Source of the DNA: an uncultured Mycoplasmatota bacterium
GTDB lineage: Bacteria; Bacillota_I; Bacilli_A; RF39; UBA660
Reading direction: 5' to 3'
Assembly (NCBI GenBank): GCA_947652325.1
Contig: CANTCQ010000001.1
Coordinates: forward strand, 198,725 to 262,724
Length of the DNA stretch: 64,000 bases
Shown: positions 2,786 through 45,272 of the stretch, in pieces
Numbering within the stretch: position 1 is the stretch's first letter
Layout of the letters: each line of letters opens with the position of its first letter
The notes under the pieces: generated by a model
Database searches by the model: none
What the model saw: only the letters and a program-made list of their open reading frames with translations
Told to the model about the DNA's origin: nothing
Position numbers and translations under genes: made by a program

Positions 2786-2872
2786 GCCTCTGTGGTGAAA
2801 TTGGTAGACGCGCTGGACTCAAAATCCAGTAGTAGCAATACTGTGCCAGTTCAAGTCTGGCCAGAGGCACCA
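2786..2872 (+). tRNA. tRNA-Leu (anticodon CAA), long variable arm, encoded CCA
   Basis: Cloverleaf read by eye. The acceptor stem is GCCTCTG/CAGAGGC, the anticodon loop is CT-CAA-AA, the variable arm is long, the T-loop is GTTCAAGTC and the 3' end is ACCA. An extended -10 (TGATATAAT) lies at about 2767-2778. Confidence 0.9.
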
Positions 2873-2884
2873 GAGTGATACCAG

Positions 2885-2924
2885 ACTCGAACTTTTAGTA
2901 AATTATAAGAGTTCGAGTTTTAAT
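2885..2924 (+). terminator. rho-independent terminator after tRNA-Leu, part of the conserved left-end module
   Basis: The hairpin ACTCGAAC..GTTCGAGT is followed by a T-rich tail. The same hairpin follows tRNA-Ala at about 44306-44345. Confidence 0.6.
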
Positions 2925-2970
2925 ATTCTTAAATTTATGATAAAATATCTGTAGAAATCTAATTGGTTTA

Positions 2971-3004
2971 TGTCAATTTAGTAAAACACACTTGCACATT
3001 GACA
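2971..3004. repeat. conserved palindromic leader motif, copy 1 (TGTCAATTTAGTAAAACACACTTGCACATTGACA)
   Basis: The outer arms TGTCAAT/ATTGACA are inverted. The motif recurs at 5210, 10794 and 44390. It lies downstream of a TGATAAAAT extended -10 at 2938-2946. Confidence 0.7.
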
Positions 3005-3040
3005 GTATCAATTTGCGAGTATATAGGAGAGTTAGGTATT

Positions 3041-3496
3041 GTGAATAAAGTAAGCTATTATTTTTTAAACCAAATGTATGATGTTCAAGCTTTATCTCAA
3101 GATTATCAAGAGCATTTATCTCAAGTTTATGAATATGGCAGTCATATGCTAAATTATAATATAGAAATAACTAAAGGAGATTTTCAGGAAGTATTTAATA
3201 CAATATATAGTATATTAAGATTTCGAATAGATGATAAAGATTTTGAAAAGGTTAGTGAACATTATTTAAAGCTTTTAATGGCTGATGCTAGGGATGGTAA
3301 TAATGTAAATGTAAATTGGTTTATTAACCATGTGTGGTATTTATGTGTTGGTATATCTAATGAGATTGACATTAAAACATATAGAGATTGTATTTCCTTT
3401 ATACAACAAATTTTGATAAAAAAGTTTGATATTCAAGAAAATATAAAAGAAAAAGTAAAAAGAAAAATCTACGCTAAGTTTATGACAAAATGTTAA
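3041..3496 (+). CDS. hypothetical protein (cassette 1)
   Basis: A GTG start lies 11 nt after AGGAGA. The upstream TTG start in the ORF track would read through the leader motif. The stop lies inside the right-end repeat. Confidence 0.5.
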   Translation: MNKVSYYFLNQMYDVQALSQDYQEHLSQVYEYGSHMLNYNIEITKGDFQEVFNTIYSILRFRIDDKDFEKVSEHYLKLLMADARDGNNVNVNWFINHVWYLCVGISNEIDIKTYRDCISFIQQILIKKFDIQENIKEKVKRKIYAKFMTKC

Positions 3497-4077
3497 TTTG
3501 TCCTTCCTTAGGGCACCAGATTGATGTGAAATGGCTTCGAAAAGTTAGAAAATCAGATGTATTTACTAAAATCACTCTTCGAGATTTACAAAATCAAATG
3601 AGATTACATTTTATTGAAACTTACAATAAGGAATATGGTTTAGAAGATATTCTAAACGCAAAAATGGAAGGTAGAAATGAAGGTTATACTAAACCTGAAA
3701 ATGTTAGAATTAAGAAACAACTTAAAACTCAAGAGAATAATTTAAAACGAGCTAAAGATAAATCTGATAAATTAGATAGTGCTACCAAAGAAGTAAAAGA
3801 AATATTAAATAATACCAAACTTACAGGATTTAATAAAAATCAGTGCGTATTATCTCTTAATGAAAAAGAGAAAATTGATGAATTTGTTAAGCAAGTAGAT
3901 AATACTAATAAAGAGTATCACAGAATACAAAAGTTATCAGCAACTTTAGAAGAAATGAATTCTAATCTTTTTAGAAGTGAACAACAAATTGCGTATCTTA
4001 CTATGAAAAATTCAAATTTAGAATCAGAAAATATTACTCTAAATAAAAAGTTAAATGAACAAGAAATTACTATTTGA
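3490..4077 (+). CDS. coiled-coil protein, possibly a 5'-truncated Mob/Pre-type relaxase remnant
   Basis: The apparent start runs through the junction repeat, so the N-terminus is probably lost. The protein has a long Lys/Glu/Asn coiled coil. Frame-broken continuation is visible to about 4320. The Mob/Pre resemblance is from memory only. Confidence 0.3.
   Translation: MLICPSLGHQIDVKWLRKVRKSDVFTKITLRDLQNQMRLHFIETYNKEYGLEDILNAKMEGRNEGYTKPENVRIKKQLKTQENNLKRAKDKSDKLDSATKEVKEILNNTKLTGFNKNQCVLSLNEKEKIDEFVKQVDNTNKEYHRIQKLSATLEEMNSNLFRSEQQIAYLTMKNSNLESENITLNKKLNEQEITI
3491..3525. repeat. cassette junction repeat (right end TTTGTCCTTCCTTAGGGCACCA + left end GATTGAT)
   Basis: GGGCACCA at 3511-3518 is followed directly by GATTGAT. 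The same GATTGAT follows the CCA of tRNA-Ala. Confidence 0.65.
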
Positions 4078-4323
4078 TAATTTAAAAGATGAAAATAAAA
4101 CTTTATCTTCTAAACTTAAATATTTTAAAGATATGTTTTACAATCTTGTTTGATTTTTAATGAATAAAGTCTTTAGGATTAAAGATAATAAGTATAAAGA
4201 TTTTGCTAAAGAATTATATAATCACGGAGCATTGGATAAAGAAAATTCTGAAGGTATAATGGTTATGCCTAAAGCTAATTATTCAAAAGAAATTGAAACA
4301 TTAAAAAAAGAAGATTTTGAGCT

Positions 4324-4797
4324 TTAATGCTTAAAATCTCCTTTTAAAATGCTGATATTTTTAGTTTTCTTTGGTATTGAATTTAAACTATAATTAATGT
4401 TGCCTTTATCACTTTCACTTATAATAAGTTTTGAAGAATCATATGAACAATTTCCGTCACTATCAATTGTAATTGTTCTTTCACCTTTTGTTATAATAAA
4501 TTTTTTTAATTGTCCATAATTTAAAGATATCATATCAGTGGTTTTATTATTTTTTTCATCTAATTTTCTTTTTACTTTTAATAAAAAACTTGGGTATTCA
4601 TTTACTGAACTTGTAGATATTTCACATATTTTTGTATAAACTTCATTGATTTCTAAAGGAAAAGTTAATCCTAATAAATATTGTTGTAATTGTTCTTCAT
4701 TTTCTAATTTAAATACATAATCACTGAAAACATCAACTTTAATACTTTTTTGATTATGATACCTATTTAGAGCTAATGGATTATTTAAAACAAGCAA
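4324..4797 (-). CDS. hypothetical protein
   Basis: 157-aa ORF on the opposite strand between two coiled-coil remnants. No recognisable motif. Confidence 0.4.
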   Translation of the reverse strand: MLVLNNPLALNRYHNQKSIKVDVFSDYVFKLENEEQLQQYLLGLTFPLEINEVYTKICEISTSSVNEYPSFLLKVKRKLDEKNNKTTDMISLNYGQLKKFIITKGERTITIDSDGNCSYDSSKLIISESDKGNINYSLNSIPKKTKNISILKGDFKH

Positions 4798-5183
4798 ATG
4801 AGGCAGTTAATAAAGTTGTTAAAAGCGAAGGCCTTTATAAAGAGTTGGAAAAAGAAATTAAATATTACAAAGCATTTTTAGCAATCAATGATGAAAAAGA
4901 TAATGAAATAAAATATTTAAAGAAAGAACTTGAAGAAGTAAATACCAAATATAATTCTTTAAAAAGTTTTATTTCTAATTTACTTCAATTACTAAAAGGT
5001 ATATTTAAGAAAATATTATCTATTGGTACTGATAAAGAAAAAGATTTAGTTAGTGAGCAATTAAAAGAATGTTATGATAATCATTTATATAGTGAAAATG
5101 ATATAAGTGATATTGTTAGAAACACACCCAAAGAGATAGAATTAACAAATTATATCGAAGAAAAGGACTACGATTATTTTTAA
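4776..5183 (+). CDS. coiled-coil hypothetical protein, possibly a second Mob/Pre C-terminal remnant
   Basis: Heptad-rich sequence paralogous in style to the 3490-4320 region. It ends in the hairpin GGACTACGATT..AATCGTAGTCC at 5165-5195. Confidence 0.35.
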   Translation: MDYLKQANEAVNKVVKSEGLYKELEKEIKYYKAFLAINDEKDNEIKYLKKELEEVNTKYNSLKSFISNLLQLLKGIFKKILSIGTDKEKDLVSEQLKECYDNHLYSENDISDIVRNTPKEIELTNYIEEKDYDYF

Positions 5184-5209
5184 AATCGTAGTCCATAAAT
5201 ACTAAATGG

Positions 5210-5259
5210 TGTCAATTTAGTAAACATACTTGTACATTGACATAATCAATGAACGTGTG
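5210..5259. repeat. conserved leader motif, copy 2 (TGTCAATTTAGTAAACATACTTGTACATTGACATAATCAATGAACGTGTG)
   Basis: Near-identical to copy 3 at 10792-10839 along its whole length. Confidence 0.7.
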
Positions 5260-5373
5260 CAAAAGAACTTATCCTTTTGAAACCAAGAAAATATTTATTA
5301 TTAGATATTATGTTTTATCTTTGAAACTATTATAAATCAAAAAAATAGTGTATAATTTTATATGGTGGTTGTT

Positions 5374-7107
5374 ATGAAAGAAACAAGAAAAAATTTAGGA
5401 AGAGTCTACCAATATGGGAAGAAATACAAGATTTTTTTAGTGCTAGAACTAATAGGATCAGTACTAGGCATTGTATTTAGTATAGTTATTCCAATATTGT
5501 CGGCACAGCAATTAGTCAAGTTTACGGATTCAGTATGGGACCAAGTAATTATTATAAGTAGTATTTTGTTTGGTGTAAGTATTCTTCAATGCTTATCAAA
5601 TATTTTAATTAGAAAAAGTTCTCAGTTTTTCTGGACAGGAATTGTCTCAACAATTAAGCTTAAACTAGGAAGAAAATTAGTAAAAACTGAACAAAAATAT
5701 ATTGATACTTCATCCTCAGGTGTTTTTATTCAAAGAATTGATAATGATACTGAAAATTTAGGTTCTATTTTTACTATTGGTTTAAATTATTTAACGGGGG
5801 TAATATCTAGCATTGGAGTTTTTATTGCTATTTTTATTATTAATAAACAAGTTTTTTTATATTTCCTTATTGTTTCAGTTATTTTATCTTTATTACATTT
5901 ATCTAAAATAAAAAAATATGGTAAAGAGTTTTCAATTTTTTTAAAACAAAGTGATAAAGTTACAAGTTTAGTAGGAGAATTAGTTAGAGGTGTTAGAGAT
6001 ATTAAAATGCTAAATGCTAAGGAAAACTTTCTCTCTAATTTTTATAATAATATTGAAATACAAAACAGAAATAAATATATTATGAGAAATACTGAACTAG
6101 CGTATAACTTTATCATCTCACTTTCTAAAGGAATGTTTGAACTAATACTTGTATTCATATTAATTTATTTAGTAAAAGGAGAAATTATAGAAATATCAAT
6201 AGCTGTAGTTTTATTCTCTTATAGAGCTAATGTAATGGAAAATTTTATGGAAAAGCTAGGCGATATGCTAACTGAAATCAAAAAGTTTAATATTTCTTGC
6301 AATAGGGTATTTTCTTTATTAGAAAATAGAGAATTTCCAAAAGAAGAATTTGGTAAAAAACATATTAATAACATTAAGGGGAATTTTGAATTTGATAATG
6401 TAACATTCGGGTACATAGAAGATTATCCAGTTTTAAAAAATATCTCATTTAAGATAAAAGAAAATGAAATGGTAGCTTTTGTTGGTAAAAGCGGTGCTGG
6501 AAAAACAACAATTTTTAATTTACTATGTAAAATATATGATATTGATAATGGAGTAATAAAGATTGATGGAGAAGATATAAAAAATCTAGATGAATATTCA
6601 ATTCGTGAAAACATTACCATTATTAGTCAAAATCCTTATATTTTTAACATGAGTATTCGAGATAACTTAAATTTAGTGAAAAAAGATTTAACAGAAGAGG
6701 AAATGATTGAAGCTTGTAGAATGGCATGTTTAGATGAATTTATTGATACCCTACCAGAAAAATATGACACAATTGTTGGAGAAGGTGGAGTAATTTTATC
6801 AGGAGGTCAAAGACAAAGATTAGCAATTGCTCGTGCATTTATCCAAGATACAAAAATAATATTATTTGATGAGGCTACTTCAGCATTAGATAACGAAACT
6901 CAAGAACATATACAACAGGCAATAAGCAACATGAAAGATAAATATACTATATTAATAATTGCTCATAGATTATCTACTATAGTTAATTCAGATAGAATAA
7001 TGTTAGTAGAAGATGGACATATTACAGATTCTGGTACACATAAAGAATTATTATTAAAAAATAAAACTTATAAAAAACTTTATGAAAACGAAATTTTGGA
7101 TAAATAA
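5374..7107 (+). CDS. ABC transporter, fused permease/ATP-binding exporter
   Basis: The N-terminal half is a six-helix hydrophobic domain. Walker A is GKSGAGKTT, the signature is LSGGQRQR and Walker B is ILFDEATSALD. The ATG at 5374 is preferred because a GGTGG RBS precedes it. Confidence 0.9.
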   Translation: MKETRKNLGRVYQYGKKYKIFLVLELIGSVLGIVFSIVIPILSAQQLVKFTDSVWDQVIIISSILFGVSILQCLSNILIRKSSQFFWTGIVSTIKLKLGRKLVKTEQKYIDTSSSGVFIQRIDNDTENLGSIFTIGLNYLTGVISSIGVFIAIFIINKQVFLYFLIVSVILSLLHLSKIKKYGKEFSIFLKQSDKVTSLVGELVRGVRDIKMLNAKENFLSNFYNNIEIQNRNKYIMRNTELAYNFIISLSKGMFELILVFILIYLVKGEIIEISIAVVLFSYRANVMENFMEKLGDMLTEIKKFNISCNRVFSLLENREFPKEEFGKKHINNIKGNFEFDNVTFGYIEDYPVLKNISFKIKENEMVAFVGKSGAGKTTIFNLLCKIYDIDNGVIKIDGEDIKNLDEYSIRENITIISQNPYIFNMSIRDNLNLVKKDLTEEEMIEACRMACLDEFIDTLPEKYDTIVGEGGVILSGGQRQRLAIARAFIQDTKIILFDEATSALDNETQEHIQQAISNMKDKYTILIIAHRLSTIVNSDRIMLVEDGHITDSGTHKELLLKNKTYKKLYENEILDK

Positions 7108-7173: not shown

Positions 7174-7226
7174 AGTTGTTGTACTTCTCTCTCTCGGGCA
7201 CCAGTAAGCAATCTGTCCGAACTTTT
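7174..7226. repeat. cassette junction repeat (AGTTGTTGTACTTCTCTCTCTCGGGCACCA + diverged left end GTAAGCAATCTGTCCGAACTTTTA)
   Basis: This is the best match to the right-end consensus. It is almost identical to 45274-45303. Confidence 0.7.
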
Positions 7227-7311
7227 ATAGTTTAGGGCTTAAATATATAAGTATCAATTTCTAAAGAAGTTGGTACTTTTTTAGTGTTTAAGAAAGAAAG
7301 GACAGGTTTAA

Positions 7312-7741: not shown

Positions 7742-9436
<1,695 letters not shown>

Positions 9437-10363: not shown

Positions 10364-10421
10364 AGTTTGAAATAACTTTCTTACTCGCACCAGATTGATA
10401 GAAAACTCGAACTTTTCGAGT
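10364..10421. repeat. cassette junction repeat (AGTTTGAAATAACTTTCTTACTCGCACCA + GATTGATAGAAAACTCGAACTTTTCGAGT)
   Basis: CACCAGATTGATAG matches the tRNA-Ala/island junction at 44289-44302 exactly. The agreement resumes at AAACTCGAACTTTT after a 1-nt difference. Confidence 0.7.
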
Positions 10422-10430
10422 ATTAAGTAA

Positions 10431-10456
10431 AACGACTTGTCAAAAAGTCGTTTTTA
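10431..10456 (+). terminator. rho-independent terminator
   Basis: Hairpin AACGACTT..AAGTCGTT followed by TTTT. Confidence 0.55.
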
Positions 10457-10499
10457 TGTTATTATGAATATGTCAAGGAAACTTGAATATAATAAAAAA

Positions 10500-10586
10500 G
10501 GGAATACTTAACCTTTCCATGTTGAGTGTTCGCCAAAGGTTTGGTTAGCACTTAATCTACGAAAGTAAATTGAGTGCTTTTTTCTT
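10500..10586 (+). ncRNA. putative antisense antitoxin sRNA, convergent with the small toxin ORF
   Basis: A TATAAT box lies at 10488-10493. The terminator hairpin AGCACTTAAT..ATTGAGTGCT plus a T-run sits at about 10549-10586. The toxin transcript would probably overlap it at the 3' end. Confidence 0.3.
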
Positions 10587-10597
10587 ATGATAGTTTA

Positions 10598-10681
10598 CTA
10601 AATTACAAAAGTAAAGAGTAAGGCTATGAGTAAGAAGATAATTAGAATAAGAGAAAGAATCAAAAAATCTTTCTTATGCAT
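10598..10681 (-). CDS. type I toxin-like small hydrophobic peptide (27 aa, MHKKDFLILSLILIIFLLIALLFTFVI)
   Basis: Not in the ORF track because it is too short. It has a strong RBS (AAAGGAGG, 8 nt before the ATG) and its own extended -10 (TGATATAAT, complement of 10744-10752). The 5' UTR can pair with the RBS region. Confidence 0.55.
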   Translation of the reverse strand: MHKKDFLILSLILIIFLLIALLFTFVI

Positions 10682-10776
10682 ATCATCAGCCTCCTTTCAC
10701 ATGAAAGTTGGCAAGCACTCAACGATTAAATATTCCTAATATAATTATATCAGGTTATTTATTTTATAACAATGTT

Positions 10777-10839
10777 GTTTACTAAATTTTGGCAATTTAG
10801 TAAACACATTTGTACACTGACATAATCATTGAACGTGTG
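10777..10839. repeat. conserved leader motif, copy 3, preceded by a perfect 12-bp inverted repeat
   Basis: GTTTACTAAATT (10777-10788) and AATTTAGTAAAC (10794-10805) are exact reverse complements. The motif continues as ACATTTGTACACTGACATAATCATTGAACGTGTG and runs directly into the RBS of the next gene. Confidence 0.7.
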
Positions 10840-10851
10840 TAGGAGGTACTT

Positions 10852-11544
10852 ATGAGGAAAACAGTAACAACATTATTTATGTTAGAATCATTAGATGGAA
10901 AAATTAATAGTGGTAATAGCGATAATCTTGATGCTGATAAAGATTGGTGTAGAATAACTGGAGTTAAGGAAGGATTACATCAATACTATGAAATTGAAGC
11001 TACTACAGATTTTTATTCATTAAATACTGGTAGAGTTATGGCTAAAATCGGAGTTAATGAAAGAACAGAATATCATAATAAAGTAGATTGCAGATTTATT
11101 ATTATAGATAATAAACCTCATTTAAATGAAAAAGGTATAGATTATATATGTCATTGGGTTGATAGACTTATACTTGTAACAACAAATAAAAATCATGTTG
11201 CATATTCATTGCAAGAAAAATATGATAATCTTGATATCTTATTTTATGATTCTTTAAATCTAAGTACTTTATTATCTGATATGGCAGAAAAATATAATGC
11301 AGAAGCAATTACAATTCAATCTGGTGGAACATTAAATGGAAAATTTTTAAGAGAAAATTTAATTGACTATGTTAATGTAGTTATTGCTCCATTATTGGTA
11401 GGTGGAAAAGATACATCAACTTTAATAGATGGAGAAGCAATAACTTCTTCTGAAGATCTTAATAAGTTAAAGGCTCTACAATTAATTGAGTGCAACCAAT
11501 TAGAAAATTCATATATTCAATTGAAATATAAAGTAATAAAATAA
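10852..11544 (+). CDS. dihydrofolate reductase-family / RibD C-terminal domain protein
   Basis: The N-terminal LFMLESLDGKIN and the C-terminal QSGGTLNGKFLRENLIDYVNVVIAPLLVGG match the RibD_C pattern. The RBS is TAGGAGG. Confidence 0.65.
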   Translation: MRKTVTTLFMLESLDGKINSGNSDNLDADKDWCRITGVKEGLHQYYEIEATTDFYSLNTGRVMAKIGVNERTEYHNKVDCRFIIIDNKPHLNEKGIDYICHWVDRLILVTTNKNHVAYSLQEKYDNLDILFYDSLNLSTLLSDMAEKYNAEAITIQSGGTLNGKFLRENLIDYVNVVIAPLLVGGKDTSTLIDGEAITSSEDLNKLKALQLIECNQLENSYIQLKYKVIK

Positions 11545-11545
11545 A

Positions 11546-11598
11546 AGTTGTTGAACGTCCTCCCTTAGGGCACCATAATGTGATTAACTTGAACCCTC
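11546..11598. repeat. cassette junction repeat (AGTTGTTGAACGTCCTCCCTTAGGGCACCA + TAATGTGATTAACTTGAACC)
   Basis: The right-end consensus starts 2 nt after the stop codon of the preceding gene. Confidence 0.65.
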
Positions 11599-44216: not shown

Positions 44217-44293
44217 GGGGAATTAGCTCAGCTGGCTAGAGCACCACGTTTGCACCGTGGGGGTCAAGGGTTCGAATCCCTTATTCTCCACCA
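44217..44293 (+). tRNA. tRNA-Ala (anticodon UGC), encoded CCA
   Basis: The acceptor stem GGGGAAT/ATTCTCC carries the G3:U70 identity pair. The anticodon arm is CCACG-TTTGCAC-CGTGG and the T-loop is GGTTCGAATCC. A promoter (TTGCGA-17-TATCAT with TG) lies at 44175-44203. Confidence 0.92.
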
Positions 44294-44389
44294 GATTGAT
44301 AGGAAACTCGAACTTTTAGATTTTATGAGGGTTCGAGTTTTAATATATCTAAATTTATGATAGAATATTTATAGAAATTAAATTGAATA

Positions 44390-44434
44390 TGTCAATTTAG
44401 TAAACACACTTGCTCATTGCATATGTCAATGAGC
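44390..44434. repeat. conserved leader motif, copy 4 (TGTCAATTTAGTAAACACACTTGCTCATTGCATATGTCAATGAGC)
   Basis: The first 24 nt match copy 1 apart from a 1-nt length difference in the A-run. It lies downstream of a TGATAGAAT extended -10 at 44358-44366. Confidence 0.7.
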
Positions 44435-44461
44435 TTAATAAGCAAGTATTAGGGGATACTA

Positions 44462-45272
44462 ATGGATAAGATAAAGAATATAGAAAAATATATAGATACA
44501 GTTAAGTTGCATAGTAATTTTTTTAAAAAGTATTATTTTCATTTTAACTAAACTGGATTCTATTTTACACCATGGGATACTATCTAAAAATCTAATTCAA
44601 CAAAAATATTTACCTAGTCTTTATACACATGATGGTCGCGATTTTGATTCAAAAAATGGAAATACTTATGTATCTTTAACTCGATATACAGATAATTGCG
44701 AATTTTCTACTATGTTTGAGTCGTTTCCACTTCATACTTTGACATGTCTATCACTATTAGTAAATAAATCTATTAATGTAGAAAAACAAGGAGAAAGAGA
44801 AACATTTTTTGATGATGAATTGTTTTGTTTGGATTCAATTCCAAATTCAAACCTTGAGGGAATTATTCTTCCTGAACATTTATCTACACTATTAATTAGT
44901 GAAGTTAATTGTTTACCAAATGATCTTTCTTGCTATACTAAATCTTATCTTAATCATTGGATAGATTGTATGCAAAGATATTTTAATACAGCCTTACCGT
45001 ATGAAGTGATTGAAGAGATAAAAGCTAGTCATGAGCAATTATGGGATATTTTAGAAGAGTATGAAAATCCAGATAGATGGGTGCAATCTGCAATTAGAAC
45101 ACAACGTGATCAGTATGGTAAAGATTTAAAAGATGTTCTTGCAAATATATTACAAAACTTATGGTCAAAAAAATTTGATATATCTAATCCAACATATATA
45201 GATGTTTTAATGAGAGTAAATGACAACCAATTACCAGTTTATGAAATAAAGCAGAAAAAACGAATAATTTAA
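44462..45272 (+). pseudogene. hypothetical protein, frameshifted in a T7/A5 run
   Basis: The ATG at 44462 (RBS AGGGGA) reads 29 codons to a TAA. The long downstream frame (track ORF 44712-45272) is open back to 44496. Loss of one T in the run at 44518-44524 would fuse the two frames. Confidence 0.5.

Follow-up and report, generated by a model that had tools for sequence, protein, structure and literature searches.

The window, by which we mean the whole 64 000 nt stretch of DNA that was analysed, belongs to an uncultured gut member of the Bacilli (assembly G000: 1.27 Mb, 27% G+C, 16 contigs). It holds short cassettes docked at the 3' ends of tRNA genes, a fragment of a large serine recombinase, relaxase-like remnants and four copies of a motif, described in the original prediction as a palindrome heading the cassette ORFs. 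The relevant features are listed below, with scores in bits taken from a covariance model (R1) that was built from 13 motif copies.

2786–2872, plus strand: tRNA-Leu(CAA); the cassette stack starts at its CCA end.
2883–2920, plus strand: terminator-like hairpin in the conserved cassette left end, which reads CCA, then GA.TGATA..ACTCGAAC..GTTCGAGTTTT.
2936–2946, plus strand: TGnTAnAAT box TATGATAAAAT, from an alignment of upstream regions.
2953–3027, minus strand: motif copy 1 (75.1 bits), an orphan oriT-like site in the first cassette after tRNA-Leu; hairpins P1 (approx. 2959–2981) and P2 (approx. 2992–3019) flank a linker in the bottom-strand ssDNA fold, with the predicted nick between 2987 and 2986 on the bottom strand (5'-GTGTG/TTTTAC-3').
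3490–4077, plus strand: coiled-coil ORF.
4776–5183, plus strand: C-terminal remnant of the cognate Mob_Pre relaxase (135 aa), without the catalytic N-terminal domain.
5165–5194, plus strand: hairpin GGACTACGATT..AATCGTAGTCC across the relaxase stop codon, conserved in relaxase-linked copies.
5197–5265, minus strand: motif copy 2 (66 bits), starting 14 nt past the stop of the relaxase remnant (5181–5183); P2a and P2 together span 5225–5259, and the predicted nick lies between 5225 and 5224 (bottom strand AAGTATG/TTTAC).
7805–8269, plus strand: large serine recombinase fragment (Resolvase N-terminal domain, PF00239, E = 3.8e-29).
10777–10845, minus strand: motif copy 3 (49 bits); P1 is lengthened here into a perfect 12-bp hairpin (10777–10788 with 10794–10805), P2a and P2 span 10805–10839, and the predicted nick lies between 10805 and 10804 (bottom strand AAATGTG/TTTAC).
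10852–11544: RibD_C-family gene after copy 3.
44217–44293, plus strand: tRNA-Ala(UGC), followed by the left-end block, a TGnTAnAAT box (44356–44366) and motif copy 4.
44373–44445, minus strand: motif copy 4 (75.3 bits), an orphan oriT-like site in the cassette after tRNA-Ala; P2 is a compensated stem at 44412–44434 (GCTCATTG/CAATGAGC), and the predicted nick lies between 44405 and 44404 (bottom strand AAGTGTG/TTTAC).

The four copies were recognized through a 15-mer, TGTCAATTTAGTAAA, which has exact matches at 2971, 5210 and 44390 and a one-mismatch form (TGGC...) at 10790, all on the plus strand. Allowing up to two mismatches, the window holds five occurrences against a mean of 1.37 in shuffled sequence, and none of 100 shuffles reached five, so the claim of a non-random repeat in four same-strand copies stands. 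Three of the four positions originally given were correct, while the fourth, 10794, falls on AATTTAG inside the copy that starts at 10790. The same contig of G000 has two extra minus-strand copies outside the window (C1:128429 and C1:271603). We also recovered the further stretch common to copies 2 and 3 (TAATCA.TGAACGTGTG) and the inverted partner GTTTACTAAATT, found both as the 12-bp partner at 10777–10788 and at 10593–10604, as predicted. The distance from motif to start codon is approximately 37 nt for copy 1 (GTG at 3041), 29 nt for copy 3 (ATG at 10852) and 40 nt for copy 4 (ATG at 44462), consistent with the reported limit of about 45 nt for three copies; for copy 2 the gap to its ORF exceeds 120 nt. 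The ORF that directly follows copy 4 (44462–44551) has only 29 codons and the 186-aa cargo ORF begins only at 44712, so the start codon at 44462 may be a relic. Copy 3 adjoins a small hydrophobic ORF on the opposite strand (27 codons, within 10440–10760), whose stop overlaps GTTTACTAAATT at 10593–10604. This ORF is divergent from copy 3 and has its own promoter, seen as a promoter-like box, whose −35 region is covered by the 12-bp palindrome of copy 3; it looks like a type I toxin module.

The unit borders drawn in the original prediction are visible in the sequence. The left-end block, CCA followed by GATTGATAGGAAACTCGAAC..GTTCGAGTTTT, is present in eight copies in G000, three of them after real tRNA genes and five after pseudo-tRNA 3' ends, and all six motif copies of the genome lie inside tRNA-docked units. 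Copies 1 and 4, together with both copies found elsewhere on the contig, sit approximately 95 nt into their unit, past the terminator-like hairpin and the TGnTAnAAT box. This box is inferred from its sequence conservation to be an extended −10 promoter that would fire through the motif into the cargo; a consensus promoter scan, which needs a −35 box, did not call it. The TTGACA within the motif was considered as a −35 box and rejected, as copies 2 and 3 have no −10 at the right spacing. Three units have no relaxase (2873–3518, 10393–11575 and 44294 to approx. 45300); cargo in each amounts to one or two ORFs, and none of the units yielded a Mob, Rep or T4SS domain. The motif is followed by genes of unrelated kinds: ABC exporter, RibD_C, PHP, TatD-like, Nudix-like, radical-SAM-like, DnaJ-like and unknown. 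A second left-end family, CCA followed by ..aatctg(t/c)ccgaacttttata..gtttag.., lies at 7204–7300 in the window and at C1:137855(c), C1:47899(c) and C9:498(c), where it follows tRNA-Phe, tRNA-Cys, tRNA-Thr(CGU) and the unit border at window position 7203; it comes without the motif.

Complete elements in related genomes have the following order: after a tRNA or tmRNA come a small ORF, a large serine recombinase, sometimes cargo, a relaxase, the motif and then cargo. The recombinase fragment at 7805–8269 is what is left of the integrase module from an element of this kind. Intact examples (L143, at G042:C20:2443–8159, and L142, L144 and L145) have a small ORF of 91–107 aa and a recombinase of 579–636 aa. 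The recombinase and relaxase genes overlap in the compact elements of G042 and G013, where the motif is the sole conserved non-coding segment besides the att-proximal block. Across promoter-type, relaxase-type and toxin-type contexts, the motif is the only segment in common and homology stops at its borders.

The motif, approximately 70 nt in length, consists of two hairpins, P1 and P2, separated by a linker. P1 is (C)TAAATTGA-N5-TCAATTTAG, the linker is (T)AAA(A)CACAC and nearly invariant, and P2 is (TT)GTACATTGA-CATAA-TCAATGAAC. An outer stem, CACAC/GTGTG, encloses P2 in many copies; it pairs in only 66% of cells, with a clear fold in L049. Read on the bottom strand, the element becomes CACAC-GTTCATTGA-TTATG-TCAATGTAC-AA-GTGTG/TTT(T)ACTAAATTGA, the GTGTG/TTT(T)ACTAAA form. 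Single-stranded DNA folds of the bottom strand gave a hairpin, a free linker and a hairpin in six of six copies tested. RNAalifold found no consensus structure in a plain MAFFT alignment, and the structure was therefore supplied by hand. Within that alignment, seven P2 pairs are changed on both sides; in an alignment fitted to the model (59 distinct rows from 73 matches, with two reverse-strand self-matches among them), UA, CG and AU replace one another at four pairs, and none of 500 shuffles reached the observed score. Compensatory differences in P2 are present even within one genome. For P1, the 3' arm is invariant and the 5' partner occurs in two registers (AAATTGA..TCAATTT and ACTAAAT..ATTTAGT), while in a distant variant both arms change together (ACTTATTTG..CAAATAAGT), so that pairing of P1, too, is under selection. 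The same P2 variant is found with both P1 types. P1 and P2 both contain ATTGA..TCAAT, which makes the element partly symmetric and explains why two copies (L060:888–964 and L009:649–726) score with the model on their reverse strand as well. Depending on the copy, three to six A/T bases stand in a row at the predicted nick (AAA, AAAA, up to AAAAAA), as seen at 2983–2986, 5222–5224 and 44402–44404 and at C1:271603 of G000; this variation might alter cleavage or might reflect slippage.

To place the motif more widely, the covariance model was scanned over the genome and its relatives, as the original prediction had proposed. A loose pattern had already matched 13 of the 24 other species in the genus but no genome from the 16 other families sampled. 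The model matched 25 of the 31 genomes of the genus, with one to six copies each, and, in a sample of the order, 31 of 119 other genomes of the family, representing 26 of the 74 genera sampled; every match fell inside the window's family. The motif is thus a real, repeated element, conserved well beyond the genome in which it was noticed. Among 57 distinct copies in relatives, 40 are followed by a same-strand ORF, seven face a convergent gene, nine have no ORF and one is at a contig end. The statement that the motif always lies upstream of a same-strand ORF consequently holds in the window and fails as a general rule. The genomes are metagenome-assembled and the relatives are not independent of one another, as much of the linkage reflects a few element lineages spreading.

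The neighbourhood of the motif repeatedly contains a relaxase. A tblastn search with the Mob_Pre proteins of G000 yielded matches in the DNA adjoining several motif copies, which bears out the suggestion that Mob/Pre-like remnants lie in the array. The remnant that ends just before copy 2 shares 88% identity with residues 264–408 of an intact 408-aa gene of G013 (contig C4), and this upstream flank, with its 135-codon ORF and stop-codon hairpin, recurs in other species. The coiled-coil ORF at 3490–4077 has 32% identity by tblastn to residues 208–393 of the C3 gene of G000, and is a remnant of the C-terminal part of a different Mob_Pre relaxase; Pfam returned only coiled-coil noise for it. The intact 408-aa relaxase matches Pfam Mob_Pre over its full length (3.7e-30) and MobM of pMV158 (PDB 4LVI, 8.7e-15), and the linked relaxase carries the HxxR and HxDExxPHxH motifs. 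Full-length relaxases of this clade (at least 47% identity) are followed on the same strand by the motif, which starts approximately 18–20 nt past their stop codon. The association was seen for five of five relaxases in the genus, six of seven in the order sample (the exception, in G065, is a relaxase of the linked clade with no motif) and, in a scan of GTDB representatives, 22 of the 22 loci that had the relaxase 3' end on the contig. Decayed relaxases followed by the motif were found in G000, G022, G003, G153 and G101.

Relaxase subclade and nick sequence go together: subclade A is paired with GTGTG/TTTAC and subclade B with GTGCG/TTTCT, which this sister subclade carries as AAGTGCG/TTTCT in 21 of the 22 loci. 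More distant relatives, a sister clade with 40–44% identity, mostly lack the motif, although three members have a divergent version downstream. This version (..AGTAACACACTACGATATTGGC-ATAG-CCAATAACG-A-GTGTG, with P1 stems of another sequence that covary) lies downstream of relaxases of 42–44% identity at L119:1386–1451(−), L124:3729–3795(+) and L126:4042–4113(+).

An intact cognate relaxase is present in four of the 31 genomes of the genus. G000, which is 90% complete, has only the C-terminal remnant and no intact copy, and thus no matching helper relaxase in the same cell. Its two intact Mob_Pre genes (474 and 447 aa; L070 at C3:36726–40259 and L071 at C6:1–2931) have no motif nearby and different upstream hairpins. 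They have a conserved upstream region in common, with the hairpin ATGTTTTGATGC-TTGC-GTCAAAACAT followed by ATAGGGAG, which is probably their own, different oriT. G000 also encodes a VirD4/TraG-type coupling protein (PF02534, E = 1e-57, 807 aa) near a weak match to a VirB4-like ATPase (C5:16582–17757 and C5:21581–22441); this region may represent a helper mating machine for mobilizable elements.

Taken together, we think that the motif is likely to be a conjugative transfer origin (oriT) of MOBV1/pMV158 type, acting as bottom-strand DNA. The comparison was made with the 42-mer printed for pMV158, whose oriT reads GCACAC-ACTTTAT-GAAT-ATAAAGT-ATA-GTGTG/TTATACTTTA (PMC3105389). The published GTGTG/TT nick core of pMV158 is matched, as the original prediction had suggested. 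The mapped nick of MobSag in IMESag-rpsI is TAGTGCG/TTA (PMC5090054), and the wider nick core (T/A)AGTG(T/C)G/TT is matched both by AAGTGTG/TTT in the largest copy group and by AAGTGCG/TTT in subclade B. IR1 of pMV158 ends 8 nt before the nick and IR2 encloses it, while IR3 comprises an outer stem with a 3-nt right-arm bulge and has the nick at its 3' end (PMC5863519). The counterparts here are the inner P2, ending 7 nt before the predicted nick, and the outer CACAC/GTGTG stem, with a 2-nt AA bulge in its right arm. The likeness does not extend further. The covariance model gave no significant match to the oriT regions of pUB110, pPM4 and a Listeria plasmid, and blastn of the motif region found nothing in plasmids and only AT-rich noise in phages, which limits the likeness to a nick core of approximately 15 nt plus the architecture. 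What we propose, on these sequence comparisons, is the same kind of site with the same nick core, and we make no claim of overall sequence homology.

P2 on the 5' side and P1 on the 3' side flank the conserved, approximately 12-nt linker 5'-AAGTGTG/TTT(T)AC-3' of the bottom strand. In the mechanism that we envisage, the hairpins would extrude on supercoiled or excised DNA, leaving the linker single-stranded, and a Mob_Pre relaxase of the ‘MSYAIFR’ clade could then bind the P2 hairpin and the next 7 nt, equivalent to ‘IR1+8’. Cleavage of the bottom strand would follow GTGTG, or GTGCG in the sister subclade, after which the relaxase would guide this strand through the type IV secretion system of a helper, rejoining it at the same site. 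The relaxase of the window has decayed, and copies 1, 3 and 4 would be orphan oriTs on one-gene cassettes. As such cassettes have neither integrase nor relaxase, any movement would require both a relaxase and a mating pore to be provided in trans, and the cassettes probably hitch rides between uncultured gut bacteria. Since the promoter-like box of most orphan copies reads through the site into the cargo, one may speculate that binding of the relaxase affects cargo expression.

Several observations run against an oriT. The motif comes after the relaxase gene, but in pMV158 and IMESag-rpsI the oriT precedes that gene and it is the sso that follows it. In 40 of the 57 copies, a promoter-like box stands on one side of the motif and a same-strand start codon on the other, which is the placement of a 5' leader. 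The likeness to pMV158-type oriTs is limited as described, one relaxase of the linked clade (in G065) has no motif, and G000 has no intact cognate relaxase. The original prediction had named a repressor operator and a 5'-UTR hairpin beside the MobV oriT. Nick core, layout and relaxase linkage favour the oriT, and the other two fit less well, given that P2 varies by compensatory changes within one genome, that G-T mismatches are no commoner than A-C, that some copies lie at convergent genes and that there is no Rfam match.

A transcribed leader would consist of two stem-loops, made from the extended −10 box, that control the stability or translation of the cassette genes. The same-strand ORF start within approximately 10–100 nt in those 40 copies, the TGnTAnAAT box approximately 20 nt upstream in tRNA-adjacent copies and the ability of both hairpins to fold as RNA in most copies are all consistent with it. 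Leader-like placement can, however, be inherited, as att block, promoter and motif are conserved together as a single module that forms the cassette left end. G-U pairs should be favoured in an RNA helix, yet P2 mismatches comprise 13 G-T against 14 A-C with no strand bias, which points to a DNA hairpin or to a constraint on both strands. Relaxase-linked copies have no promoter of their own, some copies lie between convergent genes, and conservation in the motif is strongest in the unpaired linker, whose sequence is that of a known relaxase nick site. The downstream genes share no function, and Rfam returned no gathering-score match in the window and none at E ≤ 1 for positions 2800–5400. We therefore regard an RNA leader as unlikely.

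The position directly 3' of the relaxase gene is that of ssoA in the pMV158-type module, and structure-conserved hairpins in a fixed orientation would also suit a single-strand origin that primes complementary-strand synthesis after transfer. The motif, though, is approximately 70 nt with two short hairpins, as against approximately 160 nt and one large structure for ssoA, a type of origin that also has RSB and CS-6 boxes. Compact elements with overlapping recombinase and relaxase genes offer no other oriT candidate. The linker matches oriT nick sites and, to our knowledge, no sso feature. We regard an sso as a fair alternative, though an improbable one.

Site-specific recombination is a reading of a different kind, being compatible with an oriT: the motif would be an RSA-like site at which Pre activity, or another recombinase, exchanges cargo. 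For Pre proteins, the RSA site at which they recombine DNA and the oriT coincide (PMC5703833). The confinement of homology to the motif in three unrelated contexts and the pairing of one P2 variant with both P1 types could be products of such exchange, but selection on the site while its flanks turn over gives the same pattern. No breakpoint was mapped to the predicted nick and no recombination products were observed, and we consider this reading distinctly unlikely. The possibility that the motif doubles as an RSA-like site, with the relaxase swapping downstream cargo so that the stacks would behave like integrons with the relaxase as ‘integrase’ and the oriT as ‘attC’, has a slim but somewhat better chance. 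An actual integron attC or tyrosine-recombinase core site, to which the 12-5-12 palindrome of copy 3 had pointed, was dropped: the left arm is missing from the remaining copies, and the motif has no linkage to a recombinase of that type.

Least probable is a double-stranded operator at which a repressor, such as a small XRE-like protein encoded nearby, silences cassette promoters. In its favour, P1 forms a palindrome of conserved sequence (AAATTGA-N5-TCAATTT) that closely follows the putative −10 box, but it occurs in two registers with different 5' arms and has other stem sequences in the distant variant, P2 stems vary within one genome and keep pairing, and some copies exist without any promoter.

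If the motif is an oriT, as we favour, it is a new family of such sites and adds a host lineage to a kind of element that is already known. The units are unusually small, and a place 3' of the relaxase gene is unusual for the site. The cassettes are widespread in small-genome Bacilli, being found in metagenome-assembled genomes from mouse, human and other animal guts. Previously they offered only att-like ends and no visible route between cells; a testable transfer mechanism can now be put forward. For MOBV annotation, the motif would add an oriT family with a predicted nick site, and the two relaxase/site pairs, GTGTG/T and GTGCG/T, could be used to study relaxase specificity. Mimics of oriT are already known on staphylococcal plasmids, and the notion of islands that carry only an oriT (iOriTs, see below) would be extended in two ways, to a host lineage without cultured members and to one-gene units that lack an integrase.

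Several known systems invite comparison. The likeness to the oriT of pMV158 comprises the AGTGTG/TT.TAC core, the CACAC/GTGTG stem, an inner hairpin 7–8 nt before the nick and the bulge in the right arm. The TGTCAAT..ATTGACA repeat of the motif encloses the predicted nick in the manner of IR2, and the linked relaxase is homologous to MobM. The sequence of the inner hairpin, on the other hand, is unrelated, and the motif has an extra hairpin, P1, directly 3' of the nick. It also follows the relaxase gene and acts on the non-coding strand, whereas the pMV158 oriT lies upstream on the coding strand, and its hosts are integrated elements of uncultured gut Bacilli rather than rolling-circle plasmids.

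IMESag-rpsI of Streptococcus agalactiae is likewise comparable, as an integrated mobilizable element with a MOBV1 relaxase (PMC5090054), and the MobSag nick equals the sister-subclade variant AAGTGCG/TTT. It differs in having its oriT upstream of mob and ssoA downstream, in using the rpsI site rather than a tRNA CCA end, and in that no relaxase-less orphan copies have been described for it.

The orphan cassettes resemble iOriTs, which are genomic islands carrying only an oriT and were surveyed in six nosocomial species (bioRxiv 10.64898/2026.01.13.699239, Ares-Arroyo et al.). Both are integrated, have an oriT (here a predicted one) without genes for a relaxase or mating pore, outnumber the relaxase-bearing helpers and have an oriT recognized through its conservation beside relaxase genes. 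The taxon of the window lies outside the six species covered, and the cassettes are far smaller (0.65–1.2 kb, one gene), stand in tandem at tRNA 3' ends and also occur without an integrase. A final parallel is with the CIMEs of streptococci, in which att sites flank cargo without recombination or transfer genes, with tandem accretion next to a complete element at a tRNA-type site. CIMEs are thought to excise together with a neighbouring ICE, whereas each of the cassettes described here has its own oriT-like site.
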